50,494 bases of DNA from a virus. Lineage: Duplodnaviria; Caudoviricetes. The notes under the pieces were generated by a model, which ran no database searches, was not told the origin of the DNA, and saw only the letters and a list, made by a program, of their open reading frames with translations. The translations under genes were made by a program, and so were the position numbers. Shown piece after piece: positions 747 to 43,786 of this stretch. Each line of letters starts with the position of its first letter. Within the stretch, counting starts at the first letter, position 1. The DNA lies in IMG/VR virus record IMGVR_UViG_3300031718_000015, positions 1-50,494 of that record. One strand, 5' to 3'.

Positions 747-889
747 TGGGTTTTATAACAACATTCGTTCAAATAGCTACGCTTGCTTTTGGTATAAGCA
801 CACTCGCTAAAGCGGCGCTACCTACACCCACGCCCTCTCAAAGTCCGACCTCGACACCTACTCCCGCTATCTATTCCAGCTTGCAATAG
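746..889 (+). CDS. 47-aa putative secreted Pro/Thr/Ser-rich peptide (not in ORF track)
   Basis: ATG overlaps the polymerase stop (TAATG). Translation MGFITTFVQIATLAFGISTLAKA-ALPTPTPSQSPTSTPTPAIYSSLQ has a hydrophobic stretch and an AxA site. Confidence 0.55.
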   Translation: MGFITTFVQIATLAFGISTLAKAALPTPTPSQSPTSTPTPAIYSSLQ

Positions 890-892
890 CTA
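868..892. repeat. 25-bp quasi-palindrome, copy 1
   Basis: TATCTATTCCAGCTTGCAATAGCTA. Confidence 0.92.
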
Positions 893-911
893 ATGCCAAT
901 GGAGTCCCAAT

Positions 912-2141
912 GTGGGTTGGATAGATGACTACTTATCATACACCGCCAAACAAGAATCTCCTGAGATATTTCACTTTTGGAACGCCGTCACCACCATAAA
1001 CGCCGTAATGAACCGGAAGGTTTATCTTCCGAGAGTTAGTGATGGTATAGAACGCTATAGAATCTACCCTGGCCAGACCATGATTATCTTGGTGGCCGGC
1101 GCGGGTAGGTTACGCAAATCCACGTCCGTCAAACTGCCCAAGTCTCTAGTCGAGAGTGTGGGTGTAAAGGTGCTCGATGGCAAAACCAGTCCGGAAAAAC
1201 TCCTCACGATGCTCGGCGGCAGCGGCCAGCACAGTAAAGAAGGCATCATCAGTATTTTCGCCCCAGAACTCAGCGTATTTTTTAGTCGACAACAGTACGC
1301 AGAAAGCCTTATTGATATTATCACTGACCTGTCCGACGCTCCTGACCGAAAAGATTTTCCGACGCAAAAAGGAGGGGACATTTGGGTTCGCAATGCGTGT
1401 ATTACATTTTTCGGAGCGACTACCCCCTCGTCACTCGCAGAGGCCATTCCTCAACGCGCTCATCAACACGGGTTCATGTCGCGCTTTATTTTCGTGTACG
1501 CCAGTTCCACTAATCGAAAAGAATCGCTCAGTGAAACGCACCCCGACCCGCAAAAGATGAAGTGGGCGCTTGACCTAAAGACCAAACTAAGTTATGGTCT
1601 CGAGTGTATTAGTAAACTAAACGGCCCATTTGACTTCACCGATGAAGCGAGGTTATGGTATGACACTTGGTACGATCAATATGCTAACGTGGCGGATAGA
1701 GAAGGAGAAGGCTGGGTTAGTAGAGTCCCCGACCATCTTCTTAGAACTGCGATGGCCTTGCAAGTGTCGAAGGACCTTCGCATGGTCTTTGACAGAGATA
1801 CGCTTATTGAAAGTCTGGCCGCCCTTCGACTTGTTGAGGATTCCATGCCCGAAGCATTCGCACAAATCGGGATTCACTCAGGAGCAAGTGGGATAGATAG
1901 AATTATTGCACTGTTTAAGAAAAATGGTGGGAAAATAACCAACTTTGATCTATTCGACAAGACCCTACGTTATTTCCCTGATGCTGTAGCTCTCAAGCGG
2001 GCCGTGACCGGCTTACAAGCGGCGGGCTGGATCAAGCGGGTGAATTTTGACGCTTCAACGGGGACTGAACTATTTGAGCTTGTTCGTCCTGATCTTCGCA
2101 TGGGACGCACAAATGGTCGGCCTGGGAGTCAAGGCCCTTGA
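912..2141 (+). CDS. DUF3987/YfjI-like P-loop ATPase, putative replicative helicase
   Basis: N-terminal WIDDYLSYT..ESPEIFHFW, Walker A-like GAGRLRKST, FFGATT, GFMSRFIFV, C-terminal winged-helix-like segment; GGAG RBS at 901; lies downstream of the polymerase. Confidence 0.75.
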   Translation: MGWIDDYLSYTAKQESPEIFHFWNAVTTINAVMNRKVYLPRVSDGIERYRIYPGQTMIILVAGAGRLRKSTSVKLPKSLVESVGVKVLDGKTSPEKLLTMLGGSGQHSKEGIISIFAPELSVFFSRQQYAESLIDIITDLSDAPDRKDFPTQKGGDIWVRNACITFFGATTPSSLAEAIPQRAHQHGFMSRFIFVYASSTNRKESLSETHPDPQKMKWALDLKTKLSYGLECISKLNGPFDFTDEARLWYDTWYDQYANVADREGEGWVSRVPDHLLRTAMALQVSKDLRMVFDRDTLIESLAALRLVEDSMPEAFAQIGIHSGASGIDRIIALFKKNGGKITNFDLFDKTLRYFPDAVALKRAVTGLQAAGWIKRVNFDASTGTELFELVRPDLRMGRTNGRPGSQGP

Positions 2142-2199
2142 CCTCATATTGCTTCTTACACCGTTCACAAAAGGCAATTAATATGCCATCACCGTCCAT
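2032..2199 (-). CDS. 55-aa putative zinc-ribbon protein (not in ORF track)
   Basis: GGAGG RBS upstream of ATG 2199. MDGDGILIAFCERCKKQYEVKGLDSQADHLCVPCEDQ... contains two CxxC. Overlaps the ATPase 3' end antisense. Confidence 0.5.
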   Translation of the reverse strand: MDGDGILIAFCERCKKQYEVKGLDSQADHLCVPCEDQDEQAQIVQSPLKRQNSPA

Positions 2200-3556
2200 T
2201 GGTTTTACCTCCTACCACATCTTCGATAGCATCCATCCGTCCGAACGCCCGTTTGGGTGGACCATAGACCCATTCTGTTGCAACGAGGTCATCATATATT
2301 TCCTGAAGCAAGTCGGGCAGGTCCGTCCGATATCTCATCATGGGGACTTTCAAGGATTTATCCGGCTCGCACTTGAGCATCGCCTCTTTGGGTGTCCCAC
2401 CGTCAGCACTCAAGACAAAAGCGCACCCGTTCGGGCCGGATATTTCGGGACAGCCGGAGCTATCAAGTCTAATCTCATCAGGACTAACCGATTTCATGAC
2501 GATCTCTGGATCAAACCCGAACACTGGTACCCCCTCCGCTCGTCCCTTTTCTTCTTCGGGGTATGGTGGTACATGGAGTCTAAGGGCACCAAAGAACCGG
2601 TCAGCCTTGAAGGCTCCTTGCCATCTACGACCCATAGCTATGTCCGCAAATAACCCTGCGAGGTCACTAGTGATACTATGCGCGAGCGCATAAATAGCAT
2701 CATACCCTAAACGTGGTGTGAACTCAAGGAAAATCGGCTCATTCGAGTCTTTCTCAATAATGGCATTCACATCTACCGGCCCATTATACTTCCCCTTAAA
2801 TACAGCTGCAAGCGGAGCCAGTAGCTTTCCATATAGAGGACAACTACTAATATCGTCATAAGCCCAAACCACATTCCCTGCGCAACCCGTTTTCTCCCCC
2901 AAGTCGTGGTTGAAGAACCTATTTCTCTCGACAGTGTTATTAGCCAGTACAAAGTCAGTCCCATTAAACCATGCTTCTGTAGAAACCTCCACTCCCTCAA
3001 CCTTCGACGATAGAATGAAATCGGGGGTTTCACCTTCCTTAGCATAGAGACTTGCAATCCAATCGAGGAGCCTAACCATCTCATCCACGTTGCTTGCGAC
3101 GTAAGTGGCAGCCGTCTCTGAATCGCCATTATGCTTCCATACCCAGCCTTCATCTTCGTCACGCTCCCCTAAAAACTGTTTGGCTTTGTGCCAGGCGTTC
3201 GGGCCGGAAAAGCTCACAAACTCTGGAACCTCGATACCTGCCTTTCTCGCTGTATCAGCTGCAAGTATCCTTTCTTCCTCCAACTTGGCACTGAAATCAC
3301 CACTCCCGAACACTGCTTTACCGGACTTACGCAACCGCTCGGCCTCATTAGGTAACTCAAAATCATTCGAGTCAAACACCACCACATCGGCCCACCCAAC
3401 GCTGCCCGCAAAGTCCTTGGTTTTAGGTATAAGACCTTGCCCAACCGTTTGTGCTGTTGGTTCATAAATACAAAACCTCACTACATTACCTTCAGCTTCG
3501 ACACGTCGGGCGATTGCTAGGCTCTCACCCCAACCACTTCTAAACAAGAACTTCAT
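2189..3556 (-). CDS. PurD-like (phosphoribosylamine-glycine ligase-like) ATP-grasp enzyme
   Basis: WADVVVFD, KLEEER, WVWK, VEGVEVSTEAWFNG, LGEKTGCAG (cf. GPNTGGMG), GPVDVN, LEFTPRLGY. ATG 3556 overlaps the upstream stop. Confidence 0.85.
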   Translation of the reverse strand: MKFLFRSGWGESLAIARRVEAEGNVVRFCIYEPTAQTVGQGLIPKTKDFAGSVGWADVVVFDSNDFELPNEAERLRKSGKAVFGSGDFSAKLEEERILAADTARKAGIEVPEFVSFSGPNAWHKAKQFLGERDEDEGWVWKHNGDSETAATYVASNVDEMVRLLDWIASLYAKEGETPDFILSSKVEGVEVSTEAWFNGTDFVLANNTVERNRFFNHDLGEKTGCAGNVVWAYDDISSCPLYGKLLAPLAAVFKGKYNGPVDVNAIIEKDSNEPIFLEFTPRLGYDAIYALAHSITSDLAGLFADIAMGRRWQGAFKADRFFGALRLHVPPYPEEEKGRAEGVPVFGFDPEIVMKSVSPDEIRLDSSGCPEISGPNGCAFVLSADGGTPKEAMLKCEPDKSLKVPMMRYRTDLPDLLQEIYDDLVATEWVYGPPKRAFGRMDAIEDVVGGKTNGR

Positions 3557-6500
3557 TGGCAAATCCAGTTGCTACCGTTGAATATCGTGAGCTTGTATTT
3601 AGAGCCAGCACAAGCACCAGCACCCACACAAGTACCTGGAGTGCCATTATAGTCACAGACACAACCAAGACTACCCACAGGTGCTCCCACTGGTAAGGCC
3701 GATGTCAGTGGGCACTTCAAAAGCGGGCCGGCTGAGCTAAACGAAGATGACATACCCCAGGCGCTACCAATATTAGTCCAAGTACAACTCGACGAGCCGC
3801 CTTCTGGCACGGGTAAGGCATTCACATAAACTGTCCCACCTGACCCCGCGCCCATGCCACTAGTCGTCACATTGTATTTAATCGCGGTGCCTATGTTATT
3901 TACGGCCGTGACAGGACATGGCACATCAACTGTGCAATTATAGCCACTAGGTGTCACGCCACTTACGACTACTGACTCTCCCACGCTCACTACATGTTTC
4001 ATGCCATCGAGTATGGGCATGGCAGTATTGAGTGTCACCGTCGTCCCACTCTCACTAGCACTAGAAACCGCTTGCGATCCACCTGGTTCGAGTGAATTCC
4101 ACCCAGGAACCTGGCCCGAACCTTGCCCACTGATACATCCACCCCCGCTGGTATTCCTAAACGCATCAATATAAACATTCCCTGTCTGATGTGGTATAAT
4201 AACCTCATCCGGCCCGTAATAGGTCATCGGTGCCCAATCATTACACGGATATAAACTCGGCTGAATATCCAATACTTGTGGACTAGTCACCGCCGCCGCC
4301 GCGATTCGCCAGCCGGTTATTCCAGTTCTAACCCCATCTGCCATCTCATAAATGGGCACTCCAACCTTAGTATATGTATCAATCGACGATCTAACCGCCA
4401 ACTGATTTAACCCCGTAGCGAGTGTTCTATCACTATTATTCCCCATTGTCTCGCCGGTTTCGGCCCCAACACCTTGTGGGCCATATTGCCACTCATTACC
4501 ATCACCCTGTGTAGCAACGGTAGAATTAAGTGTCTCCATCACCCAATTGCCGAGTGTGCTGGTAGCTCCAGTGCCCCAATTACCTATTGATACAACAACG
4601 CCATTCCCCCAATGCTCGATGTTGTTGTACCATGTGTTACCAATCATCGTGAGTAAGGGCACTAATTGACCACCTTGGGTGGCTAGATTGATAGGTGCCA
4701 ATGGTGATATGTAAACCGAATCCTTAACATGATTGCCCTCAGTATGGTTACTAATCAATGTAACCACCTGACCGGCCTCTTGATAGAACCCAATACCCCC
4801 AAACCCTTGCCCACACGCTCCACCATATTGACTATTGGTAATCAAGATGGGCGAGTTGACTGCCGTCATATAGAAACCATAACACTCTCCATTTCCGAGT
4901 GTTACCGTAGCATCTACATAATCTAAAAAGCCTCCATTACCACTAAACAACCCTATTCCATAGGCACTCGCGCCAGGGCTATCGTTGTAAATGTGGTCGT
5001 TCATTATTTGGAGTTCGCTAGTGTCAGTCAGTGGTGACTCATTAGCGATGGTTAGGTTAGTCCCACTAACAATTCCAAATTCGGCATTATAAATCGAGTC
5101 ATTCTCGATTCTTAGCTTATCACTAGAGATTTGCTGGCCCGTGACGCCATCAGCGCCCTGAATTATACCCTGCATTCCACGACTACGTGTGCTCGTGCCA
5201 TTTATGGTCGTGACGTCTAGCACGATATTACGTAGCGACTGCCACATGCCATTCCAAACCTGCACCATCCACATATGGTCCGGCCCGTGCCACACAAGGC
5301 GTGTACCATTGTTATAGCTATTAAGTGGTGGTATTGTCCCTCCTGACGGTGTAAACCCAGGATACTCAACCCCACCCTGACTATCAGCCACAAGCTGCAC
5401 TTCGTGTGGGATGTTGAGTATCTTAGAACAGCCATAGGTGCCATGTGGCACTAGTGTTTGACCCCCTGGCGGACTCATCGCCGTTAGGGCGTTCATCGCG
5501 GCCTGGATAGCACCACAGTTCTCAGGTGTGATAACCACCGTCCCTGTGACCTGAGGTGGATTGCTTAGTGTTACGCTGTTAGAGGTAACGGCCACCACAT
5601 TAGCATACAGCACCCCATTCTTAGCCACCGTAGGCAGGTCTGATTGAGCATTAACGAGCCCCATGTCAGGATAGCCAGGTAGCAACGACTGGGGCAGGCT
5701 GAACGGCGCAGACCTAACCTGACAAGCTGGGCTTGCTGTTGGGCCGGCGCTTGGGGTTACAGTAGGTGTCGCCGTGGCTGTATTAGAGAACACGCCTGTG
5801 GGCGTTACAGTGGCTGTAGCTGTGGCAGTTGCTGTGGCGGTTGCAGTTGCAGTTGCGGTAGCTGTAGCCGTGGCACTCGTAGCTGTCGCGGTAGCTGTTG
5901 GAGTGGGTGCCGGTGTAAATGACGCTGTAGCTGTCGCTGTTGCTGTTGGTGCAAACGTGGGTGTTGACGTCACGGTCGGTGGAAATGACGAGGGTGTGGC
6001 TGTAGGTGTAGCACTCGGTGATCCACTACAAATATACGGCACATAACCCAGTGCACTCGGCACCGGACTGGCCATTGCATTTTCGATGAAATTACCTGAT
6101 AGTTTCCAAGGCTCTGATGGTTGGGTGCTCCAAACTACACTTAAAGCACTCTCGCCCAAGGTATTTGGGTCTATTGTAGTAAAGCCATAAGCATATGCTT
6201 GGTTACCAAAGTTATGTGGTGCATTCAGGCCCGAATCGGGCTTGACGAAGTTGACTGCATAGATTGATGGTGGAGATAACGACGTAGTCGCCGCCGCTTG
6301 TGGTACCGCCACTGGATCGCCCACGAGTATACCGGCAGTGCTATTACAACTAGACAATAGTGGGTTACCACTAATTGCCTGACAGGTATATTCATAGTCA
6401 ATCGGCCTGGCACCAAATGCCAAGATCGAATTAGAGTTTTGTGGTGAGCAGTCCCACGTTCCTGCCCCCACTTGCCCTGGAATCGGGCCGGTCCAGATGC

Positions 6501-7391: not shown

Positions 7392-7394
7392 TTG

Positions 7395-7611: not shown

Positions 7612-7636
7612 TAGCTATTGCGCTTTGGAATAGATA
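7612..7636. repeat. 25-bp quasi-palindrome, copy 2
   Basis: TAGCTATTGCGCTTTGGAATAGATA, abutting the stop codon at 7637-7639. Confidence 0.9.
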
Positions 7637-14495: not shown

Positions 14496-16399
14496 TATTG
14501 TGCTCCCATTTTGAGTTCGCTCTTGATCTTAGCTCGACTCAAGAGAGCTGCCACGCCATTATTGACACTATGAGATAGCTGAATCACAATCTCTTTGCCA
14601 CTCAAACCAATCGGCACTTTCGTGAATAGTGGCACCGGTGTGCTAAACGTCTGGCCACCATCAACAGAAAACGCGATCCGCCAATTCATTAAATCTGTCC
14701 CACTCGGCACATAATGCTGCCAAGTTTTCCACAAATCGACATTGTCCATCGGTAGCTGCTGATGTGTCGCTACCGCCACAAGCGAGCCATTTCCACCAGC
14801 ATTATCATACAAACGATAGACATTCCCATCAGCCCCACTGAACACGATATCAGTAGAACCATCGGCAAATTCAAGTTCTCGAATTGTAATAACCTCAGTG
14901 GGCAGTCCTTTAACAACGCTAAAAGGTGACTCCCGACCAAGGTCTGCAAGAATAATCTGATCGTTGTATTGTTTAGCATTTATGTTGACCGCGAGATATA
15001 GTATACTGCGATCGGTGTCGATGTCACCATTAACACCCGTTTGAAAACTACTCTTTTGAATCGAGTCGGTGAGGGGTTTGATTTGGTCACCGATAAATGG
15101 CGGGCCGGCCTCGGCAAATGACAATCGGGCGAGTGATTGACTAGTAAGGACGTAGACTTTATCCCCGTCTGTAATAGCGGCCCTTCGCCCGACAGCTCCG
15201 CGTCTAGCATCGACTGGTACCTCCACGAAACTTGTGAAATCTGTGCCTGTGATTTGCCTAGCTGTGTTCTTACCATTCACAATCAATCTATCAGACAGAG
15301 CCACTACCGCTGTGATCTGATCTAGTATTGTATTAGGAAACTTAAAGAAGTTATAAATCCCAAACGACTGAAAGTCCCCGATATTAGAGAACCATATAGT
15401 ATTCAGATTCGGGTCTACTAACCAATATCTCGACTGATACACGGCGCCCCAGACGGCACCAACGGGGGGAGGATTATTGGCACCGATAGCTGGGGCACCT
15501 TGTGGAGGGTTGACCAACAAGTTGTCATCGGTCGGCCCGATATTACCAGCGGCGTAGCCATCATAAATGGTGGTTGTTGCACCCTGGATTAAAATCGAAT
15601 CGTTAGAGTCAGATAGATTATTACCTGCTCCGTCATACAACATCGGGGGCAGGAAGAATGTTGCACCACCATCTCGTGTTCTATAGACCCGAATTCGGGT
15701 ATAACCACTCCCAATCGGTGGAGCAGGCGTAGGAATAACTAGCTTGACTTGTGTGATATAGGGAGTAGCTAGGGGTGGAGTATTCACTGTCGTCGTTATA
15801 ATCGACGAGTTCTCCACTGGTGATGGTGACGATTCGTGAAGGGTCTGTGGGTTGAAATAGGTCCATTCGTACTGTATCCCAACCTGCATGAAGTAGGTAT
15901 TGACATTTGATGCCGAAAATGAAGCTGTTAGCGATAACTGAGTCGCGGGTGGGCTAACACCTATTTGTGTAATCACCACTCCATCATATTTAACCGGTGG
16001 AAGTCCTGGCAGCGTGGACAATAGATAGTTAATTGCTTCGTTAGTCGGTAAGCCAGTACCTGGAAATATACACACAAAAGGCTGACCTGGATTCGCACCA
16101 AGATTGGCCAGTGGTAGATTAGCGATAAGGTCATAAATGACACCGTCCTGGCCGATGCCAAGGTCATAGAATGGTGTTGAAGGTTGCTGACGCCACGCGA
16201 TCATCTCGACAATTGGTGCGGCAAACGGGCCGCTGATCTTAAGTGGGCCAACTATCTTACGTATCGACCCAGGCACAAACATATCACAATTCTCTAAACG
16301 CTGCCATGAGTCATACGGACGCATCAGCACATCGGGCTGAATATTTAAGCCTTTAAAGCCCAGAAATTCGAGTGGCGGATTGTCAACCTTAACGCGCAT
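14495..16399 (-). CDS. Tail hub/nozzle protein (P22 gp10 / tail tubular B-like)
   Basis: N-terminal FKGLN...ENCD...GSIRK; beta-propeller-like IWFS, ITAVVAL, RLIV; insert with YEWTY...ESSPSP...IRVYRT. Confidence 0.7.
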   Translation of the reverse strand: MRVKVDNPPLEFLGFKGLNIQPDVLMRPYDSWQRLENCDMFVPGSIRKIVGPLKISGPFAAPIVEMIAWRQQPSTPFYDLGIGQDGVIYDLIANLPLANLGANPGQPFVCIFPGTGLPTNEAINYLLSTLPGLPPVKYDGVVITQIGVSPPATQLSLTASFSASNVNTYFMQVGIQYEWTYFNPQTLHESSPSPVENSSIITTTVNTPPLATPYITQVKLVIPTPAPPIGSGYTRIRVYRTRDGGATFFLPPMLYDGAGNNLSDSNDSILIQGATTTIYDGYAAGNIGPTDDNLLVNPPQGAPAIGANNPPPVGAVWGAVYQSRYWLVDPNLNTIWFSNIGDFQSFGIYNFFKFPNTILDQITAVVALSDRLIVNGKNTARQITGTDFTSFVEVPVDARRGAVGRRAAITDGDKVYVLTSQSLARLSFAEAGPPFIGDQIKPLTDSIQKSSFQTGVNGDIDTDRSILYLAVNINAKQYNDQIILADLGRESPFSVVKGLPTEVITIRELEFADGSTDIVFSGADGNVYRLYDNAGGNGSLVAVATHQQLPMDNVDLWKTWQHYVPSGTDLMNWRIAFSVDGGQTFSTPVPLFTKVPIGLSGKEIVIQLSHSVNNGVAALLSRAKIKSELKMGAQ

Positions 16400-16423
16400 A
16401 TCTATTGCATTTTGAAATAGCTA
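16399..16423. repeat. 25-bp quasi-palindrome, copy 3
   Basis: TATCTATTGCATTTTGAAATAGCTA; spans exactly from the upstream stop to the first base of the downstream ATG. Confidence 0.92.
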
Positions 16424-21650: not shown

Positions 21651-21913
21651 TCACTCTCCTTTGCTTTCTTGAAAAGCACAATATGTTCATCAAATGCAGC
21701 AATCATCTTAACCGCATGAGCTACTCCACTAGCCCACTTAACCTTAGCCATCATAGCACCTGGCCGGTCTTCTTCAGCACTCAGCGCTTCTTCTGCAACA
21801 GTGGCATACATTTCTTGCATATAACGCAAGATGTGTTGCCAAATATGCCCTTGCTTAAACAACTCAATTTCATCTTTGAGCTGAGATAACTCGCTATTTG
21901 TTGGCTCTGCCAT
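21647..21913 (-). CDS. Small helical protein downstream of portal
   Basis: MAEPTNSEL..., ATG at the edge of palindrome copy 4. Confidence 0.6.
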   Translation of the reverse strand: MAEPTNSELSQLKDEIELFKQGHIWQHILRYMQEMYATVAEEALSAEEDRPGAMMAKVKWASGVAHAVKMIAAFDEHIVLFKKAKESE

Positions 21914-21937
21914 ATCTATTCCAAGATGCAATAGCTA
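21913..21937. repeat. 25-bp quasi-palindrome, copy 4
   Basis: TATCTATTCCAAGATGCAATAGCTA; spans stop codon to next start codon. Confidence 0.92.
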
Positions 21938-22363: not shown

Positions 22364-24813
22364 GCAGCAATCGAACCTTCGACTCCTTCTTCTTTAGTGC
22401 CACCTTCGGCTTGGTCACCTGGATTTTGACCACCTGCTAGTCCAGGTCTAATACCCATCGCGGCCATTTGTTTGCCCATTGTGGCAGCCATGAGAGACTC
22501 TTGCTGTCTTAGAAAGGCCGCGATTTGTTGCATCTTTTGTGTTTTCTGAATATGGTCCATAAATATGGCATATGTTCGTTGATTCAAAACACGTTTAGCA
22601 TTTGGATCAACCAGCATAGCCATGTGAGCTTTTAGATGCTCGTCGAAGTTCTCATCTATGTGCGGTTCAACAATCTCACCGCGTTGCATCATTTTGTTCT
22701 CGATATTCGGGGCGGGTGATTGCTCGGGTAAGTCAGGCTTATAGAGTGGCACACCCTTATAGTTCATAGCCTTGGCAACGTGGGTAATGGCAGCATATAT
22801 AGTCTGCGGCCGCACAATACCAAGCTGTATTAAAATCTGATTCATCAAGAGCGAGAGCATATTTGTCGCAATGTCGCGTTGCAACTGGGGGTTGATTTGG
22901 TCCAGGTTCCCTGTAAGACGAAGGAGCAATTTTCCTTGAAGCCTATCCGTCTCAAAGTGTTTAACGAGCTTAACACCCTCCTCTCCGCCGACTTGAAAGA
23001 TTCGCGTCGGTGGCGCAAACTGTTGATATAAGCCAAGTATTCGATACAATAAACATCGCAACGCCCGCAGGAAACCATTGACAACATCTTCCGTACGAAG
23101 GTCAACCGCATTCGCGGTTCCGAGATATTCACTAGCAGATTGTCTTTTCGAGACAAAACTGCCTGTAGCCGCATCGTTGAGGCCGCTTTGGGCCATTCCA
23201 TACTTGTAGATGAGTCCTTCATCTTGAAAAGACCACTGAGGGTTAGCGTTGGTTTTGGGGAATGTGACACTAGCTGGATCAGCCGTGGGAAACATCTTGC
23301 CAGGTGCGATGTTATAAATGTCCTTTTGCATTCCCGCTAGTGGTTTATAAAAACCAAAAGGCATAACATTGAGAGTTCCACTATCGAGGCGCAGATTATG
23401 AATGCCATCCAGTTCCGCTTGAGTATGCCTAAGCCACTCAGGAACGCCAATAGGCAAAAACCTATTGTTCCGCTCAATAAAGCTAAACTTAACCATAGAG
23501 CGTTTGCCATCTTTGTTCAGTGCCTCCAAACGCTCGATTTTGATTAGCTCTTTAGCCTTAGGGACTATCCACGCGGCTACCTGTACGGCATCGGTGAGCG
23601 CCACCGCTGGGTCATAAACATCTGATTCCCGTCGCGGATGAATCCAACCTTCCCAGCGGTAGACCTCGATAAAGCGACGCTCATAGTTAACTGCTTGAGT
23701 ATCTCGCGAGTCAGAACCCTCCTCCTGGTCCTGAAGCTTAGTGTAGTCCATTGGGACCACTTCAGGAATCTTATTAGTGGCGGCTATTAAAATGCGTTCG
23801 TTGCGTTCACTACCAAGGTCTAGCCAAGTGCCATTCTTAAGTCCATCACGATATTCTTGAGTATCGACCCACAAGCGAAGACCATTAAAGGGTAGCTTCT
23901 CTATATCGGGATTGGTGTTGATGAAGACCAAATCCTCGCTATTGGGGATAGTGATTCTCACACCATGAAAGGTGGTTTCGCACTTGTCTGATTGAACACA
24001 CAAACGGCCATTGCGGATGCTGAATATTACTTTAGCCTTGTCAGGTTCTCCTTCATCGGGGTCTTTAACCATGACATTGAAAATGCCCTGGCCCGTTTGC
24101 GCCGCGACCTCGAAGTCCTGATTATCAAATAACAGCTCCAGCGCGGCCTGCATTTGACTCAAGATGGGCTTGCTAGTGTCGTACTCGTATTCTTTATACG
24201 TGAGTAGCTGACGTCGGTCTTTCTTCCACACAGGTATCGGGCAGCATAGACCACCAATGAGCGCCTGTTTAACAATGGCTTCCATCGCGGCTTTGAGACC
24301 GACCGCGTCATCGCGATATCTAACAATCTCGTCGAGTTCCCACTGATACCAGAGATTATTCTCCTCAAGTCCAGCGGGATTAACACTCTCGTCAAGTGCC
24401 TCAAAGCGCGCGTATAGCTCACCACCCAATAGGGCTTTAACTATCCTGGCCGCCCACTGCTGTGTCTGTACACTAGTAAATGGAACTCTTACGTTCGCGG
24501 CATCCTCATAAGGAAAGTGTTTAGGGCTGACAATAGATTCCCAATTCTTGACACACTCGACCTGATTAAGATACCACTCTCGCAGAGCAGTAGCACCATC
24601 ATAGAAGTCACGAATAATGCGCTCGACGAACCACGTAGTATCCTCATCACTCAGTGTGATACTCGCCTGCTCACGCTTGCCGCGAGCTAGAAGCGCGGCC
24701 AGTAGGGCATCGTCATTGACAGTCGTCGCTATCGAAGACTCATCCCCAGAATCTGGCCGCGCCTCATCACCGACGGCAGGGGCGCTCGAAACTATGTCAT
24801 TCTCGTCAGGCAC
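22360..24813 (-). CDS. Portal protein (P22-like)
   Basis: 817 aa; PYEDAANVRVPF, IEVYRWEG, IGVPEWLRHTQAELDGIHN..D, C-terminal Gln/Gly-rich tail; position in the head module. Confidence 0.82.
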   Translation of the reverse strand: MPDENDIVSSAPAVGDEARPDSGDESSIATTVNDDALLAALLARGKREQASITLSDEDTTWFVERIIRDFYDGATALREWYLNQVECVKNWESIVSPKHFPYEDAANVRVPFTSVQTQQWAARIVKALLGGELYARFEALDESVNPAGLEENNLWYQWELDEIVRYRDDAVGLKAAMEAIVKQALIGGLCCPIPVWKKDRRQLLTYKEYEYDTSKPILSQMQAALELLFDNQDFEVAAQTGQGIFNVMVKDPDEGEPDKAKVIFSIRNGRLCVQSDKCETTFHGVRITIPNSEDLVFINTNPDIEKLPFNGLRLWVDTQEYRDGLKNGTWLDLGSERNERILIAATNKIPEVVPMDYTKLQDQEEGSDSRDTQAVNYERRFIEVYRWEGWIHPRRESDVYDPAVALTDAVQVAAWIVPKAKELIKIERLEALNKDGKRSMVKFSFIERNNRFLPIGVPEWLRHTQAELDGIHNLRLDSGTLNVMPFGFYKPLAGMQKDIYNIAPGKMFPTADPASVTFPKTNANPQWSFQDEGLIYKYGMAQSGLNDAATGSFVSKRQSASEYLGTANAVDLRTEDVVNGFLRALRCLLYRILGLYQQFAPPTRIFQVGGEEGVKLVKHFETDRLQGKLLLRLTGNLDQINPQLQRDIATNMLSLLMNQILIQLGIVRPQTIYAAITHVAKAMNYKGVPLYKPDLPEQSPAPNIENKMMQRGEIVEPHIDENFDEHLKAHMAMLVDPNAKRVLNQRTYAIFMDHIQKTQKMQQIAAFLRQQESLMAATMGKQMAAMGIRPGLAGGQNPGDQAEGGTKEEGVEGSIAA

Positions 24814-26721: not shown

Positions 26722-26746
26722 TAGCTATTCCAAAGTGAAATAGATA
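26722..26746. repeat. 25-bp quasi-palindrome, copy 5
   Basis: TAGCTATTCCAAAGTGAAATAGATA; fills the whole gap between the stop at 26747 and the ATG at 26721. Confidence 0.92.
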
Positions 26747-30582: not shown

Positions 30583-32105
30583 ACCCCTGCCCGAATACCA
30601 AAGCGGTTGTAGGTCTGTTTGAGATCAACGGTCTGAACTATCTTGGGACCATACTTGAGCTGGTCGAAGTCGAGTTCGGCGAGACAGAGATAGCGAATTA
30701 TATCGGGGAAGTCTTTGTTGATTTCAGCTGGGACTTCTTTCTTGTCCTTACCTTGGTTACCTTTATTACGTGCCCAATCAGCCCAGGCATAGCGGCCCAT
30801 TTGGTGAACCGGCCCGCCTTTGCCACGACACTTTTCGGTGAAGCGAAGGCGTGGTTTGGGCTTTGCGAGTAGATAGCTATGCACCATCGTGTGACCAATC
30901 TTGATATTGTCATCAGTGAAGGCCACAGGATAGCCATAGTTATTGTAAGCTTCTTCCCAAGACATCTCGTCGATTTGCTTTGCCTTGCCACGGTTGGGGT
31001 CCATGACACACAACACGGCTGGCATGGTGTGTCGTGAGTCAATGGCCATTAGCTCGGCCTGAATCTGTTCTAGTGAACCCTTGATCAAAGCCCAGTCAAA
31101 TATGATGATATCATTTTGTGGCGTTATCGTGGCCCACAGATGATAAACGGCCTTGCGCTCATGCGGGTCAACCCCCATTACAACCGGCCAGTCATATTGG
31201 AATTCCTGGTCGGGAATGATGAAGGGTGGCGCCTCGATAAATTCTTTATAAACACGTCCGACAAGAGAGACAGGGTTTCCAGTAACTCGCACTTCCCGTT
31301 CTTCTTCTGTAAGCGAATCAATAAAGTCCCGCTTTGCTTGTTCACTAATCCAAGGATTGTCGTCAATGGAGGACTTGAAGATTCGAACAAAGGATTTCTC
31401 CTCACCCTCGTCGAAGAGCCAGGTTTCCTTGAGGAGTGTGGCCGTGATGACGAATAAACCATTGAGGGTTACCAGGCCGCGAAGCACGGCGGTGTAAATA
31501 GTGCGGGGCGGGGGTTCGTCACACCATACAATGTCCCAGTCTTTACCTTCAGCCTTGTCGGCACCCTGATCATAAGTGCGGAAGAATAAGATTGAGCCGT
31601 TGGTATGCTCAATATGAACCACAGCCCCCGTGGGATTACGAACGACGTTCTTGATGAATTTCTTTGGACACCACGAGAGATAAGCGGGGAGGGTAACCTC
31701 TTTGTGAGAGTCAAAGTCCTCGGCGAAGACGCAGCCATAACAAGGGATTTTGAACTTCTTGGTGGGCCGGAAATCATGTCCCCACAAGATAGTGCCGGTC
31801 ATAAACTCGGCCATCTTGATAGCACCGGCAGTGGTCTTACCAGTCTTATTACCAGCAATAAATAGAAGCACCCTAACACTCGCATCATCGAGTGTCATGA
31901 AATCCCACTGCCCACCAGGATTGGGCATGTAGAATCTCACCGGATCAGCCTTGATGAGCTTGGCGTAGTCTTTGGTTTTCTTATCGAGTTCCCAGAGCTG
32001 GTGTGGAGTATAGGACTCGATTTCCTGTTTCGATGGCAAGAGGCGCGAGAGAGTACGCTCGATATATGTAGGCGGGATTTTGTCTACATAGAGTGGCTTG
32101 GCCAC
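30579..32105 (-). CDS. terL: Terminase large subunit
   Basis: AGNKTGKT Walker A, VWCDEPPP Walker B, TAT motif, GVDPH nuclease motif, C-terminal D..D..RY. Confidence 0.93.
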   Translation of the reverse strand: MAKPLYVDKIPPTYIERTLSRLLPSKQEIESYTPHQLWELDKKTKDYAKLIKADPVRFYMPNPGGQWDFMTLDDASVRVLLFIAGNKTGKTTAGAIKMAEFMTGTILWGHDFRPTKKFKIPCYGCVFAEDFDSHKEVTLPAYLSWCPKKFIKNVVRNPTGAVVHIEHTNGSILFFRTYDQGADKAEGKDWDIVWCDEPPPRTIYTAVLRGLVTLNGLFVITATLLKETWLFDEGEEKSFVRIFKSSIDDNPWISEQAKRDFIDSLTEEEREVRVTGNPVSLVGRVYKEFIEAPPFIIPDQEFQYDWPVVMGVDPHERKAVYHLWATITPQNDIIIFDWALIKGSLEQIQAELMAIDSRHTMPAVLCVMDPNRGKAKQIDEMSWEEAYNNYGYPVAFTDDNIKIGHTMVHSYLLAKPKPRLRFTEKCRGKGGPVHQMGRYAWADWARNKGNQGKDKKEVPAEINKDFPDIIRYLCLAELDFDQLKYGPKIVQTVDLKQTYNRFGIRAGV

Positions 32106-32894: not shown

Positions 32895-33197
32895 TTACGG
32901 GGCGCCTGGGACCACAGCCTTGATCTGTGCAATGCCGGCGTTGACTGCCGTCACAGAGGCCTGAATCTGCGCCACCGCCGCTTCGACATCTGCATCAGAA
33001 GTCCCAGGGTTCGAGATAACTGCGAGAGCCGCTGTGATGTCAGCTGTTTCAGCTGTCACTGCGGTAGCCAGTGCCGCAATCGCGGCCTTGAGATCGTCAA
33101 TAGCTGCCATGATTTTCTCCGTCTTGGTTAGTATCTGTTTAAGTAACTGCCTATCATCATCCCAGAAAAATCCAGCTTTCGGTCCGACCTGTCCCAT
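32895..33197 (-). CDS. Ala-rich coiled-coil protein, probably leaderless
   Basis: ATG 33197 lies 7 nt after a TACAAT -10 box; the ORF-track TTG start is the -35 box itself. Confidence 0.6.
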   Translation of the reverse strand: MGQVGPKAGFFWDDDRQLLKQILTKTEKIMAAIDDLKAAIAALATAVTAETADITAALAVISNPGTSDADVEAAVAQIQASVTAVNAGIAQIKAVVPGAP

Positions 33198-33204
33198 GAG
33201 AAGC

Positions 33205-33233
33205 ATTGTAGCAAGCCCACAGGGCGATGTCAA
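33205..33233 (-). promoter_or_regulatory. Sigma70-type promoter of the late arm
   Basis: TTGACA-17 nt-TACAAT with extended TGn. Confidence 0.8.
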
Positions 33234-33284: not shown

Positions 33285-33309
33285 TAGCTATTCCAAATTG
33301 CAATAGCTA
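33285..33309. repeat. 25-bp quasi-palindrome, copy 6
   Basis: TAGCTATTCCAAATTGCAATAGCTA, in the divergent intergenic region. Confidence 0.92.
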
Positions 33310-34383: not shown

Positions 34384-34923
34384 ATGGCAGACGGCAAAGC
34401 GTTGGAGTTGAAAGAGGGTGCGAGGATTGATGTGAGCGTTACGGTCTATGAGGATATCAAGACCAAGGACGCGAGCGGGCGGGTGACCGAGGGCAAGACC
34501 TTGCATGACGCGAATGGCCGGAAGGTTCAGACACGCGCCGAAGATGGCCAGCGGTTCGTGAGAAGGGTGCTCATGTACCCATTTCCAGCAGGGTTGATTG
34601 ATGATCCGCTGACGGGCAAGAAAGCGGCTGAGAATATGACCGCGCAGCAGATCGGCCATGCGCTGAATGAGTGGCTCAAGGAAGTCGAGGCGCTCAAGGC
34701 GAATGGTGGGCGGGTGAGCGTCAGCGATGGTAAGGATTCGGTTACGATGGAAGTGCCGATTGATGTCATTCCCACGCCGGCTGAAACCTTGGTCAAGGGT
34801 TTCAAGCTTGAGATTCAGGGACCGGTCAATCAGCAGCTAGTGAAGGACCACGTCACTGTCATCGGCGGCCAGGGCAAGGCAAAGAGCACACGAGGCCCGC
34901 TCAATCTCTCGTCACTCGGATAG
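34384..34923 (+). CDS. Hypothetical early protein with LxxLG C-tail
   Basis: AGGAG RBS; followed by a terminator; ends PLNLSSLG. Confidence 0.8.
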   Translation: MADGKALELKEGARIDVSVTVYEDIKTKDASGRVTEGKTLHDANGRKVQTRAEDGQRFVRRVLMYPFPAGLIDDPLTGKKAAENMTAQQIGHALNEWLKEVEALKANGGRVSVSDGKDSVTMEVPIDVIPTPAETLVKGFKLEIQGPVNQQLVKDHVTVIGGQGKAKSTRGPLNLSSLG

Positions 34924-34937
34924 TCAACTCCAACAAG

Positions 34938-34970
34938 AACCCCGATCAGCAATGGTCGGGGTTTTTTCTT
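34938..34970 (+). terminator. Rho-independent terminator
   Basis: AACCCCGATCA-GCAA-TGGTCGGGGTT followed by a T-tract. Confidence 0.88.
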
Positions 34971-34990
34971 GCCTGCGGCATAGCTCGGTG

Positions 34991-35281
34991 ATCTAAGGCA
35001 GCAACTTTTTCAATGAGTGTCAATATGACGCCCTGAGAGCTGCTTTGAGAGACTCTTAGATGGCATTCTCAAAGGCGTTATTGGAAACTATGGGCGCAAG
35101 CGAGAGTGGAGTAGTGTTTATATATATGTCTATATATATATTAACATATATACTCTAACACATTTGCTCTCACTCCTGCCCGCTGTTTCTATGTCAGTCT
35201 CTCTCAACCGCTCCTTTAGGGATAGTTTCCAATGGCCCCGCTGAGAGGCGATGACTAAGGGTCGCTGAAAGCGCCTTAGAT
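34991..35281. other. Nested inverted repeats around a (TA)n core; candidate replication origin
   Basis: TCTAAGGC/GCCTTAGA, GACTCTTAG/CTAAGGGTC, TTGGAAACTAT/ATAGTTTCCAA, GTGTT/AACAC and TATATATGT/ACATATATA around ~35117-35152. Confidence 0.5.
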
Positions 35282-35357: not shown

Positions 35358-35687
35358 GTGGGCACCCGAATAATTCCAGTCTCGCTGCTAGAAAAGAGAT
35401 ATGTTAAAGAGTGCGCGGCCTGCTACGAAATGTGGTTTGGTGAATATTGTCGCGTGAAGCTAGCAGGAATTATTAGTGAGTATACACCAAAGAAACCGCT
35501 TCCAGCACACCAACAAAGTATGCAAGAACCCACCACTTCTCTAACTCTAAAAATAGCACATGAAACTTGGTCATATGTTAGAACAGAAGCGAAACGACAT
35601 AACCTAACACTCTCTCAATATTGTCGTATTATACTACTCGATCTGGAGTTGCCTAATGCCAATCAAAACATCGCCCAAGAAGATTAA
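35358..35687 (+). CDS. Ribbon-helix-helix DNA-binding protein with N-terminal Cys cluster
   Basis: TSLTLKI..ETWSYVRTEAKRHNLTLSQYCRIIL; start re-called to the leaderless GTG. Confidence 0.6.
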   Translation: MGTRIIPVSLLEKRYVKECAACYEMWFGEYCRVKLAGIISEYTPKKPLPAHQQSMQEPTTSLTLKIAHETWSYVRTEAKRHNLTLSQYCRIILLDLELPNANQNIAQED

Positions 35688-35925
35688 ACTCGTGACGTAT
35701 GTTACAAGTATCGAACATGCCCAAGCAATGGAGACTGCAAGGTTGCAACAATTGTCACTAAGCGAGTGGCTCAGAGCACTCATTATTGGTGCATTTGCTA
35801 AAGTGGTTGTTATTCCAGCCCAAGTCAATCAACCTTATGTAAAACTCCCTGATGCAACGCAACTCCGTAATGATTTAATATTCGGTGATGTCAATGAACC
35901 CCACAATGAATCTGGAGACGAGTGA
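35656..35925 (+). CDS. Ribbon-helix-helix-like protein
   Basis: KLVTYVT..EHAQAMETARLQQLSLSEWLRALI; GGAG RBS. Confidence 0.55.
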   Translation: MPIKTSPKKIKLVTYVTSIEHAQAMETARLQQLSLSEWLRALIIGAFAKVVVIPAQVNQPYVKLPDATQLRNDLIFGDVNEPHNESGDE

Positions 35926-36307: not shown

Positions 36308-36332
36308 TATCTATTGCAATATGGAATAGCTA
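36308..36332. repeat. 25-bp quasi-palindrome, copy 7
   Basis: TATCTATTGCAATATGGAATAGCTA; exactly fills the gap between TAA (36307) and ATG (36333). Confidence 0.92.
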
Positions 36333-36577: not shown

Positions 36578-36634
36578 ATCATTAGGCGAATTCATGCTAT
36601 GATGCTTGATTGAGCAGCTCGCCTGTGCTATCCT
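36578..36634 (+). promoter_or_regulatory. Promoter with ATTAG-N5-TTCATGCT box
   Basis: Box ends 36598; TTGATT (36606)-17 nt-TATCCT with TGn. Confidence 0.68.
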
Positions 36635-37391: not shown

Positions 37392-37392
37392 C

Positions 37393-37889: not shown

Positions 37890-37902
37890 AAGGAGAACGC
37901 CA

Positions 37903-40372: not shown

Positions 40373-40556
40373 TTGGCAACACACAATCTGCGACATTTGT
40401 TGGATAAACAAGTTTCCAGACCGAGAAGCCTTTCGTCTACGTGACGCAAGACAAGAAACCTGTTGCTTCTGTGGTACACATACCAATAGTGGCATATATG
40501 TCCGACAAGACCCAGAAACCGTCGGTTGTGGAGGCGAACATGACACAGACGTTTGA
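40359..40556 (+). CDS. Small zinc-binding protein
   Basis: H.ICDICW...CCFCG..T.SGIYVR.DP. Confidence 0.65.
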   Translation: MATSNWQHTICDICWINKFPDREAFRLRDARQETCCFCGTHTNSGIYVRQDPETVGCGGEHDTDV

Positions 40557-41144: not shown

Positions 41145-41386
41145 CTGATCAGCAACAAGCAACAGCGCGGCACGATGCGGCAGTTGGGCTACTACAAACG
41201 TATCATGACCTCAATCGTCGTTTCGGCTTCTGTCTAAAAGAACTGCGTCAGCGGGCGCAACTCTCGTTGAGGCAACTTGGCAAGCTCGTAGAGACAGACC
41301 ATGCCTATCTTCACCGCTTAGAACATGGAGTAAAGACAAACCCCTCAGAAGAACTCGTCAAACGGCTGCATAGGTGCTTGCGATGA
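41141..41386 (+). CDS. XRE-family HTH protein
   Basis: FGFCLKELRQRAQLSLRQLG...AYLHRLEHG..NPS. Confidence 0.82.
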   Translation: MTDQQQATARHDAAVGLLQTYHDLNRRFGFCLKELRQRAQLSLRQLGKLVETDHAYLHRLEHGVKTNPSEELVKRLHRCLR

Positions 41387-41715: not shown

Positions 41716-41716
41716 A

Positions 41717-42367: not shown

Positions 42368-42715
42368 ATGGACCCCGACACCTTTGCAGAGATTCTCGGT
42401 CTCGTCGAATCCGATGGTAACCCCAACGCCAAACTAGGTGACGGTGGTCGCGCATTTGGTCGCTGGCAAGTCCACCCCGACTGGGTCTTTGAATGGGCCC
42501 TGCGTCTAAAGGTCACGCCCAAACTCAATGAGCTGTGGGACGACTTCATGCGTCGTCTAATCAAAGCCTTCTACAACTTTCCATTTCACCTGAAGCTTCA
42601 ACCCATAGAGGTCGCGATGACATTCCATATTGGCCACATCACACATGTCGGGCAACCCAATTGGGACGATGATTATGCAACGAGGTTCAAGTTCTACGCC
42701 GCGCAGCAGCATTAG
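42368..42715 (+). CDS. Lysozyme-fold protein (SLT / i-type-like)
   Basis: VESDGNPNA..GDGGRAFGRWQVH. Confidence 0.7.
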   Translation: MDPDTFAEILGLVESDGNPNAKLGDGGRAFGRWQVHPDWVFEWALRLKVTPKLNELWDDFMRRLIKAFYNFPFHLKLQPIEVAMTFHIGHITHVGQPNWDDDYATRFKFYAAQQH

Positions 42716-42764
42716 ATCATTTCATGCTGCTATGCTTGATTGATCATAGGCATTCTGCTATAAT
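42708..42764 (+). promoter_or_regulatory. Promoter with AGCATTAG-N5-TTCATGCT box
   Basis: Box at 42708-42728; TTGATT (42736)-17 nt-TATAAT with TGn. Confidence 0.78.
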
Positions 42765-42790
42765 GCAGTCACAACGGAGGACCAATTTAG

Positions 42791-43006
42791 ATGGCAAGGC
42801 TTTCTAGCACTTCTACAGGAACCGATATCACGGTCGAACCCAAGCTCATCTCCAAACCGGTGAATGAGCTAACGGACGACGAGTTACTCGCGGAGATCGA
42901 ACGCCTACGTGGGGAGCGTGGGACAGCTGTCCAGGCTGCGCGTCGGGGTGGCGGACCGAGTGGACCAAGACCATCACAACCAATCAAATTGGGAGATCTG
43001 GGCTAG
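42791..43006 (+). CDS. 71-aa protein with LxxLG C-tail
   Basis: GGAGG RBS; ELTDDELLAEIERLR helix; ends QPIKLGDLG. Confidence 0.75.
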   Translation: MARLSSTSTGTDITVEPKLISKPVNELTDDELLAEIERLRGERGTAVQAARRGGGPSGPRPSQPIKLGDLG

Positions 43007-43194
43007 TGCGCATAAAAGTCTATGTGCTTAACATTGATGGATCTGTAACACTGCGTGAAGAGTTCGTGCCTGGGGAGGTTAAGAAAATTAGGTGTGAAGG
43101 CGAACAATTTAGTGTTGAGTTCACAGGACCATCCGCCTTAGGTCGAACATCAAGCACTCAAAATATCCAAGCTATTGAGGTCACTGATGACTAA
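43006..43194 (+). CDS. Hypothetical protein
   Basis: GTG coupled to the upstream stop. Confidence 0.55.
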   Translation: MRIKVYVLNIDGSVTLREEFVPGEVKKIRCEGEQFSVEFTGPSALGRTSSTQNIQAIEVTDD

Positions 43195-43510
43195 GGAACA
43201 ACTCGACAAAATCGTCCAACAAAACATCGACGATGGGGCGGCATTCCCATATCTACTAACCCATTGTCCCCGCTCACTAGCTCTCCTCGACGAACTCCTC
43301 AAAAAGGGCCAGGACACCCACGAGCCAATGGACTGGATTGCACTCGGTCTCAATGGCAATCGTGACCATGCCATCGACCACCTTCGTAAAATGATGGGAC
43401 CACGCCTTATCGGCGATCACGACAATCACTGGCTCAACGCGGTGTGTCGCTTGATGTTCTGCCTAGAATTACTCGAGGCCGCGAAAGATGTTCAAACCCC
43501 TGGGACATAG
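43187..43510 (+). CDS. Degenerate DUF5664-like (dATP/dGTP diphosphohydrolase-like) protein
   Basis: KG..TH...DW...DHAIDHL...D.HWLNAVCRLMF pattern. Confidence 0.45.
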   Translation: MTKEQLDKIVQQNIDDGAAFPYLLTHCPRSLALLDELLKKGQDTHEPMDWIALGLNGNRDHAIDHLRKMMGPRLIGDHDNHWLNAVCRLMFCLELLEAAKDVQTPGT

Positions 43511-43778
43511 AATACTCGTGAAACGCTGGCCCGAAGTCGAAGAACGTGAGAGTGGTCTAATCCTGCCAGCGGCGGCCCGTGAGCTACCACAAATCGGCCG
43601 TGTCATCGCGGTGAGCGGCCCCATTGACGTTGAGGTGGGAGATGACGTGATATTCGAGAAGTTTGTCAAAACCGACTATCGAATCTACATCAAAGACAAC
43701 GAGTACTTACTCTTACCTTATGACGCTCTCTACGCTGTGATTGTCGGTGGCGTGAGCGGGATAGCTATTGCAGGATGA
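43488..43778 (+). CDS. groES: Co-chaperonin GroES-like
   Basis: FKPLGHRILVK...ESGLILP...GRVIAV...VEVGDDVIFEKF...EYLLL. Confidence 0.9.
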   Translation: MFKPLGHRILVKRWPEVEERESGLILPAAARELPQIGRVIAVSGPIDVEVGDDVIFEKFVKTDYRIYIKDNEYLLLPYDALYAVIVGGVSGIAIAG

Positions 43779-43786
43779 AATAGATA
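43762..43786. repeat. 25-bp quasi-palindrome, copy 8
   Basis: TAGCTATTGCAGGATGAAATAGATA; its last base is the A of the next ATG. Confidence 0.92.

Follow-up and report, generated by a model that had tools for sequence, protein, structure and literature searches.

The window analysed here is the complete virus record IMGVR_UViG_3300031718_000015 at its full length of 50 494 bp, the ends of which overlap by 127 bp and thus give a circle of 50 367 bp. Spread around this circle are eight copies of a 25-bp quasi-palindrome, and the same genome encodes a protein in which a ParB-CTPase domain, a helix-turn-helix (HTH) and a DNA methyltransferase are fused. An earlier note, made from the sequence alone, had proposed that a dimeric protein, one for which coverage of the whole genome matters, uses the quasi-palindromes as sites on double-stranded DNA. 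Comparative and structural inference supports that proposal, the basis being the invariant arms of the sites, their weak RNA hairpins, an orientation independent of the genes, their even spacing and the occurrence of similar arrays together with the fusion. We further propose, with a probability of roughly 50%, that the fusion is the binder of the eight sites, acting on them as ParB does on parS or KorB on its OB sites. The sites and the candidate gene lie as follows.

Site 1, 868..892: contains the TAG stop of a small upstream open reading frame (ORF); GGAG-N7-GTG(912) follows
Site 2, 7612..7636: directly after the stop of the gene for a 1658-aa internal virion protein (minus strand); AGGGAG and ATG 7595 follow
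Site 3, 16399..16423: fills the gap between the adaptor gene (stop inside the site) and the gene for a 634-aa protein (ATG shares the last base)
Site 4, 21913..21937: between the HNH gene (stop inside the site) and the gene for an 88-aa protein (ATG shares the last base)
Site 5, 26722..26746: fills the gap between the stop of a DUF3309 gene and ATG 26721
Site 6, 33285..33309: in a divergent control region, 52 bp from the -35 element of the leftward promoter
Site 7, 36308..36332: takes up the whole space from a TAA stop to ATG 36333, the start of the gene for a 71-aa protein
Site 8, 43762..43786: the TGA of a GroES-like gene lies inside the site; ATG of the gene for a 339-aa protein shares the last base
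Candidate binder, 46837-48207, plus strand: 456 aa, with a ParB-CTPase N-domain, an HTH and a beta-class N6/N4 DNA methyltransferase

Sequence, spacing and form of the eight sites

Searching the whole window with the pattern TAKCTATTSCRNNNTGVAATAGMTA recovered exactly the eight places that had been listed before (868, 7612, 16399, 21913, 26722, 33285, 36308 and 43762), with 12 strand-matches because four of the copies fit the pattern on the reverse strand too, while none of 100 dinucleotide-preserving shuffles gave any match. The shorter core CTATT-N9-AATAG found the same eight places together with one chance match, carrying one mismatch, at 23462. A position-weight matrix made from the 16 half-sites, as had been suggested in the search for further copies, returned none: the eight sites scored 33.2–36.9 bits, the next best place scored 7.0 bits, and no full-scoring orphan half-site was found anywhere in the window. 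This separation in score, together with the absence of orphan half-sites, indicates a closed family. The 16 half-sites are near-identical, with invariant arms and a free centre of 3 nt. As the earlier note had observed, positions 9/17 are non-complementary in all eight copies and positions 3/23 in seven of them, each of which has a chance of about 0.03 under independence, as estimated by hand from the observed base frequencies. Only in site 6 are the 8-bp outer arms perfectly complementary.

The gaps on the circle (6744, 8787, 5514, 4809, 6563, 3023, 7454 and 7473 bp) were reproduced from the coordinates, and when the spacing was tested against random gene junctions it proved more even than chance, with a coefficient of variation (CV) of 0.27. 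When 8 of the 81 crude gene junctions were drawn at random 100 000 times, a CV of at most 0.27 came up in a fraction of 0.00043; uniform placement gave 0.00054. Both arms of the genome are divided by the sites into functional modules.

Copies 3, 4, 5 and 7 had been described as filling the entire stop-to-start gap, which holds, and copy 8 does so as well. These five gap-filling copies (16399, 21913, 26722, 36308 and 43762) often supply the TAG or TGA stop of the gene before them and the A of the ATG after them, and site 8 encodes the last six residues (GIAIAG) and the stop of the GroES-like protein. At site 1, alignment with a related genome (G001, see below) identified GTG(912) as the true start of the DUF3987 helicase gene. 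It is true, as was pointed out earlier, that the gap-filling copies leave no Shine–Dalgarno (SD) sequence, but there is nothing special in this, as a simple regular expression found an SD-like word in only 33 of 81 crude ORF calls and none in the other 48. Since the SD sequence is so often missing and the first gene of the late arm is apparently leaderless, an ATG that abuts a site needs no special mechanism, and space economy in a compact genome is enough to explain the abutment.

The eight copies are in our judgement likely to be protein sites on duplex DNA. Predicted RNA folds of the seven transcribed copies amounted to -1.7 to -4.9 kcal/mol, six of the seven being no better than many shuffles; most had fold z-scores above -1.3, and in two of the seven the expected hairpin was not the best fold. 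Site 6, in the divergent region and with its perfect outer arms, folded at -6.7/-9.3. We saw no compensatory changes in the arms across the eight copies, and thus no stable stem kept by structure, as in an RNase III site or a terminator hairpin; a free centre flanked by arms that are conserved in sequence without compensation is the reverse of what is seen in structure-conserved RNA. In the reading direction of the gene that follows, the mismatch at 3/23 is T/C in four copies, G/A in three and G/C in one, so that the RNAs differ while the duplexes are the same object flipped. Within the window the orientation of the asymmetric positions does not track gene direction, nor does it show a replichore-like pattern. 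From the constancy of the imperfections we infer selection against a stable hairpin, exerted at the only two positions at which the binder would tolerate alternatives (3/23 and 9/17).

Arrays and fusions in related phages

Among the matches listed in a search of IMG/VR with the window motif there were only single chance matches. Two IMG/VR relatives share structural genes with the window, namely G001 (TerL 68% identical) and G002 (47%), and the window motif itself is absent from both. G001 carries an array of its own, with six perfect copies of TATGCA-NNN-TGCATA and one degenerate copy (gap CV 0.49, P = 0.08 by simulation), and four of these seven sites stand at junctions syntenic with the window sites at 7612, 16399, 21913 and 33285.

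G001 5696: partner of site 2
G001 43576: partner of site 3
G001 37577 (the degenerate copy): partner of site 4
G001 32590: partner of site 6

Positions that are kept while the sequence has changed in concert point to a co-evolving trans-acting factor. By tblastn the fusion is present in G001 (62% identical) and not in G002, as are the ribbon-helix-helix (RHH) protein encoded at 35656-35925, a 179-aa protein and a 140-aa protein. Of the binders named in the earlier note, the ParB-methyltransferase is favoured; the XRE protein has no tblastn homologue in G001 although that genome bears an array, TerS is present in G002, which lacks the motif, and the RHH protein remains a candidate.

The junctions themselves differ between the two genomes. 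In G001 the site lies directly after the portal gene and there is no HNH gene, so the HNH gene of the window (21935-22363), between the portal gene and site 4, looks like an insertion beside a site. The GroES junction of G001 (20420-20560) has a different tail, an SD sequence inside the gene, overlapping genes and no site. Comparing window 43700-43790 with G001, sites are gained and lost at junctions, their number staying at 7–8. A mobile micro-element with TA duplication was considered and rejected, because a clean insertion does not account for the difference between window and G001 at the GroES junction.

The only cultured-phage record with a long match was that of Desulfofustis phage LS06-2018-MD01 (OP947158.1, L218), which has the same two-arm layout as the window and eight copies of a 27–29-bp quasi-palindrome with a TCCCA-NNN-TGGGA core and GCTATG arms. 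Its copy at 41281, in a divergent region upstream of terS, is equivalent to window site 6. As a side observation on this record, three annotated coding sequences (15457-15930, 23043-23522 and 41234-41371) run across quasi-palindrome sites, and the starts or ends of these, or the reality of the 45-aa ORF among them, may be mis-called.

An IMG/VR search with the fusion gave 36 further loci, many with dispersed palindromes that have a 3-bp centre. Scanning whole genomes by script we counted 10 copies in G003, at least 6 in G004, 11 in G005, 7 in G007 and about 9–10 in G006, the element of which is built as 11-3-11 with two different half-site types; an array was present in all eight fusion-bearing genomes scanned in this manner, the window included. 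G011 and G012, which were found through PolA, each have the fusion and, by pattern search, five sites about 5–6 kb apart. In G002 (93% complete) we found neither the fusion nor a dispersed quasi-palindrome family, and in G008 (100% complete) there was no fusion, no match to the G011/G012 patterns and no dispersed family in the 40 kb examined. The expectation that related phages would carry equivalent dispersed palindromes is thus borne out in ten further genomes with the fusion, at 5 to about 11 copies per genome, while none were found in the two relatives without it.

A blastp table of the window proteins against eight genomes (E <= 1e-4) singled out the fusion as the only window protein found in all six motif-bearing comparison genomes (G001, the Desulfofustis phage, G003-G005 and G007) and not in G002. 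The fusion was also found in G006, the helicase and PolA were found in G002 too, and the structural genes of the window were matched only in G001 and G002. G003 is of the same broad type, with an SU10-like capsid and portal, and an SLT domain is present in its giant protein.

In other lineages the sites stand 5–20 nt upstream of an SD sequence and ATG. Gap CVs estimated by hand were about 0.36 for the Desulfofustis phage, 0.47 for G003 and 0.5 for G005, where about 0.9 is expected for random points. No site of G005 is fully symmetric: one fixed arm position is mismatched in most (TTTG with CATAG, TATG with CAAAG) and the others have their mismatch at another place in the arm, with both orientations relative to the genes, as in the window. 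A replichore-like orientation in G005 was rejected, the seven informative sites falling into two blocks with a chance of about 1 in 5 by our own estimate. G006 (L265-L267) has in addition a separate cluster of ATCAC-N5-GTGAT palindromes in its early region (2110, 4666, 4927, 4969 and 43908), which looks like ordinary operators distinct from the dispersed array.

The candidate binder and the competing readings

In phmmer searches the N-terminal part of the fusion matched the N-domains of Spo0J, Noc and ParB (best E 2.5e-7), including the arginine box (GGRRFRA) and the ENxQR box (EENIQRKEL), so that both the GxxRxxA and the ENxxR signatures of a ParB N-domain are present; in an alignment of 15 homologues R57, A60, E89 and N90 never vary and R56 hardly does. 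AlphaFold2 predicted with confidence an HTH at residues 150–176 (helices 150–157 and 161–176, pLDDT 86–94), which in the model directly follows the ParB N-domain. The best Foldseek matches of a 215-aa N-terminal model were two-domain chains of ParB, Noc and KorB, over 170–221 columns with E about 3e-6, with low TM scores of 0.3–0.44 that result from differing domain orientations. In its C-terminal half the fusion is a methyltransferase of the beta class with CcrM as the nearest match, and the C-terminal dimerisation domain of ParB is absent. A homodimer model joined the methyltransferase domains with a score of 0.70, against 0.00 for the best control, the runs sharing at least 79% of contacts with a partner pLDDT of at least 72 and interface residues 296–358. 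Of the proteins solved as one-chain pairs, 20 of 30 attained the 0.70 mark, and of those solved as single chains, 1 of 23; as dimers of beta-class methyltransferases have already been solved, this pass may be mere likeness to those structures. According to the model, the methyltransferase domain would stand where the dimerisation domain of ParB normally stands.

Within the HTH, which is otherwise conserved (W148 and T153 are invariant and A154 nearly so among the 15 proteins), it is the recognition helix that varies. The window helix SPANLTR is common to G003 and G004, the proteins of which are 30% identical overall, and all three genomes have GCTAY outer arms, as do L223 (TPANLAR) and G006 (SPAALSK). 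The G001 protein is 62% identical overall, yet it has the helix DQSRVSR and different arms. Judged by these sequences, the recognition helix appears to covary in part with the site arms.

In the window and in the majority of the 15 homologues, residues 54–57 of the arginine box are GGRR instead of GERR; L275 (G009) reads FCRL, and L278, L280 and L241 keep the Glu (GERR). To go by the behaviour described for other ParBs, Gly in place of that Glu should slow CTP hydrolysis (PMC13229309), and by analogy the GGRR box may give slow nucleotide hydrolysis and long-lived clamps.

Based on these findings, we infer a course of binding, clamp loading and sliding, and a purpose, as follows. Each HTH would read one 11-bp half-site, TA(G/T)CTATT(G/C/T)CA, leaving the 3-bp centre uncontacted, and the methyltransferase domains would hold the two subunits together in place of the usual ParB C-terminal domain. 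Nucleotide binding would close the N-terminal gate, whereupon the closed clamp would leave the site and slide, carrying the methyltransferase along the flanking few kilobases, and sites every 3–9 kb on both arms would then give coverage of the whole genome. The likely benefit would be fast methylation against host restriction, with KorB-like silencing as an alternative output. A constraint of 25 bp would fit poorly inside coding sequence, placing the sites in stop-to-start gaps as the only free DNA of a compact genome, and their being transcribed beside start codons would account for the imperfections at 3/23 and 9/17, by which the mRNA hairpin would be kept weak. Genome-wide methylation borne by clamps is a tentative proposal as regards purpose. 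Equally tentative is its extension to a widespread class of phages in which a nucleotide-gated clamp would tow a methyltransferase over the entire genome from evenly spaced, lineage-specific parS-like sites retained at gene junctions, methylating the DNA processively, or else marking or silencing it, and thereby outrun host restriction.

If this reading is true, it would provide a function for one of the commonest phage ParB-fold fusions and a new use of the parS/OB principle, with an enzyme delivered along DNA, as well as a new way of targeting a DNA-modifying enzyme. It would also account for one class of conserved repeats between the genes of uncultured phages and possibly yield a marker for annotation. 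The question would be directly testable, each phage offering its own protein–site pair (a 25-bp duplex and a 215-aa fragment), and the systematic imperfection of the palindromes would illustrate how a DNA site persists in transcribed and translated junctions without a harmful RNA hairpin.

Several findings weigh against the fusion as a clamp-forming binder of the sites. The Glu of the GERR box is replaced by Gly in the window fusion and most homologues, and some methyltransferase fusions are reported to bind ATP (PMC12704722). At 25–29 bp the sites are longer than the OB core printed in PMC11790492. The Desulfofustis phage has GCTATG arms but the helix SKSSISR. Fast-evolving small DNA-binding proteins, such as the RHH protein, could track the motif unseen by BLAST, and the position of the sites, which border modules and closely precede starts, would fit a transcriptional or translational role as well. 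Moreover, as most of the positive genomes came from searches with the fusion itself, it is chiefly the two negative genomes that carry the association. A repeat-family search, finally, gave no family in six more fusion-bearing genomes (G009 and G013-G017, the latter five examined via L282, L283, L285, L288 and L293), and in G009 TGCA-N3-TGCA was not enriched (23 versus 17 for the control). This search is the weaker method: it finds the window family, but it missed the family of L278 that pattern search then found, which makes the six blanks inconclusive rather than negative.

Plasmid RK2 has 12 OB sites. The resemblance of the window to that system lies in a ParB fold with an HTH, a short palindrome in many copies and a mobile genome of about 50–60 kb, with KorB chains among the structural matches of the N-terminal model and with nucleotide-gated clamp loading and action at a distance by sliding proposed here by analogy. 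KorB is described as loading at OB sites as a CTP clamp and sliding to distant promoters (PMC11790492). Unlike KorB, the window protein has a DNA methyltransferase as its C-terminal part rather than a dimerisation domain, no ParA/IncC or KorA-like partner was found among the window ORFs, and the replicon is a phage without sign of lysogeny, with sites of 25–29 bp that are imperfect and evenly spaced. What it shares with ParB–parS and Noc–NBS is a CTPase fold at the N terminus that bears the arginine and ENxQR boxes, an HTH after this fold, a palindromic site (here putative) and the best sequence and fold matches; it differs in that the sites are genome-wide, not clustered, in the Gly for the GERR Glu, in the fusion to an enzyme and in the lack of the ParA ATPase partner of ParABS systems. 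A Pfam scan of the 75 window ORFs gave no RNA polymerase, sigma factor, integrase, repressor or ParA family, the sole P-loop match being a Sak4-like AAA_24 domain and not a ParA/CbiA-type partner.

The same domain fusion has been surveyed in phages and prophages, where ParB-CTPase/N6N4-methyltransferase proteins are counted among the commonest phage ParB fusions, with no known function and a suggested role in anti-defence (PMC12704722). We found no DNA site named in that survey, the main text of which contains the string 'palindrom' 0 times, and it is silent on which fusions keep the HTH, which the window fusion does according to its model. Phage ParB-like proteins that lack a DNA-binding domain have been linked to thymine dioxygenases (PMC13229309). 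In the literature searched we found no description of dispersed palindromes tied to a ParB-methyltransferase fusion.

Turning to other explanations, the sites could be operators or roadblocks for another phage protein, for example the RHH protein as a tetramer, which would silence or time transcription of the modules into which both arms are split; stoperators and the conserved inverted repeats of phiC31 are the natural comparisons. We regard this as unlikely. The signature of a double-stranded DNA site fits any dimeric binder, and the outer arm TAGCTA is a 6-bp palindrome of the short kind preferred by RHH dimers. The RHH gene is moreover conserved in G001 and not in G002, a site lies directly downstream of it in G001, and window site 7 lies one gene further on. 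Against this, BLAST found no RHH homologue in the distant motif-bearing phages, although short proteins are easily missed, and site 6 is upstream of both predicted promoters and overlaps neither. Stoperators likewise are described as one short sequence found in small intergenic gaps across a genome and bound by one phage protein (PMC5721134, PMC9283540), with up to 20 copies in cluster CA Rhodococcus phages (PMC5721134). They are however 13–14 bp, asymmetric and mostly in one orientation, and serve the monomeric immunity repressor of a temperate phage (PMC5721134). The window sites are 25 bp and symmetric, and neither a repressor, an integrase nor any other sign of lysogeny was found in the Pfam scan.

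Alternatively, the sites might act as RNA, with a boundary hairpin that is bound or cut to give leaderless or short-leader mRNAs, or that controls translation of the next gene, comparable to phage RNase III sites and translational operators. Five of the eight copies abut a real ATG without an SD sequence, a leaderless mRNA is apparently used elsewhere in the genome (TACAAT, 7 nt, ATG 33197), and the sites of other lineages precede SD and ATG. Start-linked repeats also have a precedent in the start-associated sequences of cluster K mycobacteriophages, identical short sequences 3–9 bp upstream of 13–19 starts to which no role is assigned in that description (PMC11373665). Those elements are nonetheless 13 bp, asymmetric and overlapping the ribosome-binding site (PMC11373665), whereas the window sites are palindromic and one is not beside a gene start. 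With hairpins that are weak and in two transcribed copies not even the best fold, invariant stems around an unconstrained loop without compensatory changes, and a mismatch that is U/C in four genes and G/A in three, so that the RNA but not the duplex varies by site, we find an RNA role quite improbable; site 6, moreover, lies outside both predicted transcripts' promoters on their upstream sides, and an SD word is missing from most crude ORFs in any case. A split SD sequence joined by the hairpin was rejected, as the upstream flanks hold no consistent SD sequence.

A phage RNA polymerase or sigma-like factor that escaped recognition might use the sites as promoters or start signals of T7 or N4 type, with a start at the right edge, but we hold this to be highly improbable. 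Syntenic positions combined with a lineage-specific consensus are the pattern of phage-polymerase promoters, and the sites do lie at module boundaries with an ATG 0–1 nt after them. However, Pfam and PHROGs scans found no RNA polymerase or sigma domain in the 75 window ORFs or in 42 ORFs of G003, the sites are near-symmetric with an orientation independent of gene direction, and good sigma-70-type promoters exist at 33233, 33524 and 42736. The giant protein resembles polyvalent internal core proteins, and the SLT domain in its G003 counterpart makes a concealed virion RNA polymerase less likely; the 1658-aa and 1071-aa proteins had no sequence match in the PDB apart from one at chance level (E 0.33) for the 1071-aa protein, a search that a very divergent polymerase could escape. 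A sigma-70, sigma-54 or late-type promoter inside the site was rejected by eye, since spacing and start do not fit.

Site-specific nicking, priming, recombination or packaging by a ParB-like nuclease fold or an HNH enzyme, for which the localized single-strand interruptions in certain Pseudomonas phages offer an analogy, is just as improbable, for although a prophage ParB-methyltransferase fusion is reported to nick DNA non-specifically (PMC3592412), nick-associated motifs are given as about 13 per genome in one phage family (PMC11780129) and an HNH gene abuts site 4, the motifs described (Pseudomonas phage tf / Rembedalsseter type) are asymmetric, on one strand and clustered while the eight sites are symmetric and evenly spread, G001 has a site but no HNH gene at that junction, and nicks are not visible in contigs.

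Genome layout and further observations

Soil metagenome is the label of the sequencing run that contains all sampled words of the window, and contigs from one other run were identical to the window where they overlap, giving no sequence variation. No RNA run was among those listed as containing the window. Megablast of 6 kb of the window against cultured phages gave no match, and no prophage relative of the window was found in the species genomes searched. The genome is arranged in two arms.

Minus-strand arm, from about 33.2 kb down to 2.2 kb: TerS, TerL, tailspike, portal and HNH; further genes for a Mu gpT-like capsid protein, an SU10-like adaptor and the 1658-aa internal-core-like protein
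Plus-strand arm, from 33.3 kb onward through the window end to 2.65 kb: many small genes, XRE and GroES; further genes for a Sak4-like ATPase, an SSB-like protein, the ParB-methyltransferase, a UDG-PolA fusion and the DUF3987 helicase

The elements TTGACA-17-TACAAT and an upstream TG make up a strong promoter of sigma-70 type at 33197-33233 on the minus strand; 7 nt beyond it stands ATG 33197, in the reading frame of ORF 32895-33233. With TACAAT only 7 nt before this in-frame ATG, the first gene of the structural (late, minus-strand) arm is, from its sequence, probably translated from a leaderless mRNA. A 37-nt direct repeat has copies at 36580-36616 and 42710-42746 that are 78% identical. The predicted promoter TTGATT-17-TATAAT at 42736-42764 overlaps the second of these, which makes a sister promoter near 36606 probable. 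A TATATA run at 35119-35147, inside the early-arm gap 34923-35280 and kept in position in G001 (30961-31010), may be an origin or a promoter cluster.

The 8-mer CCGGCCCG occurs in 29 copies in the window (17 on the plus and 12 on the minus strand), compared with 1.0 expected from shuffles. It is mostly intragenic, at about 1 per 1.7 kb (for example at 2432, 9238, 25787, 37309 and 49199), and is thus a second word spread over the genome; candidate explanations are a Chi-like or uptake-like word of the host, a target of methylation or a peptide bias. GC-rich coding repeats with a 12-nt period, resembling GCTGTAGCTGTGGC, are found at 5749-6021 and 29558-29829 and are common to the 1071-aa protein and the 967-aa tailspike-like protein; the tail genes of G008 contain long PT-type repeats with the same 12-nt period.

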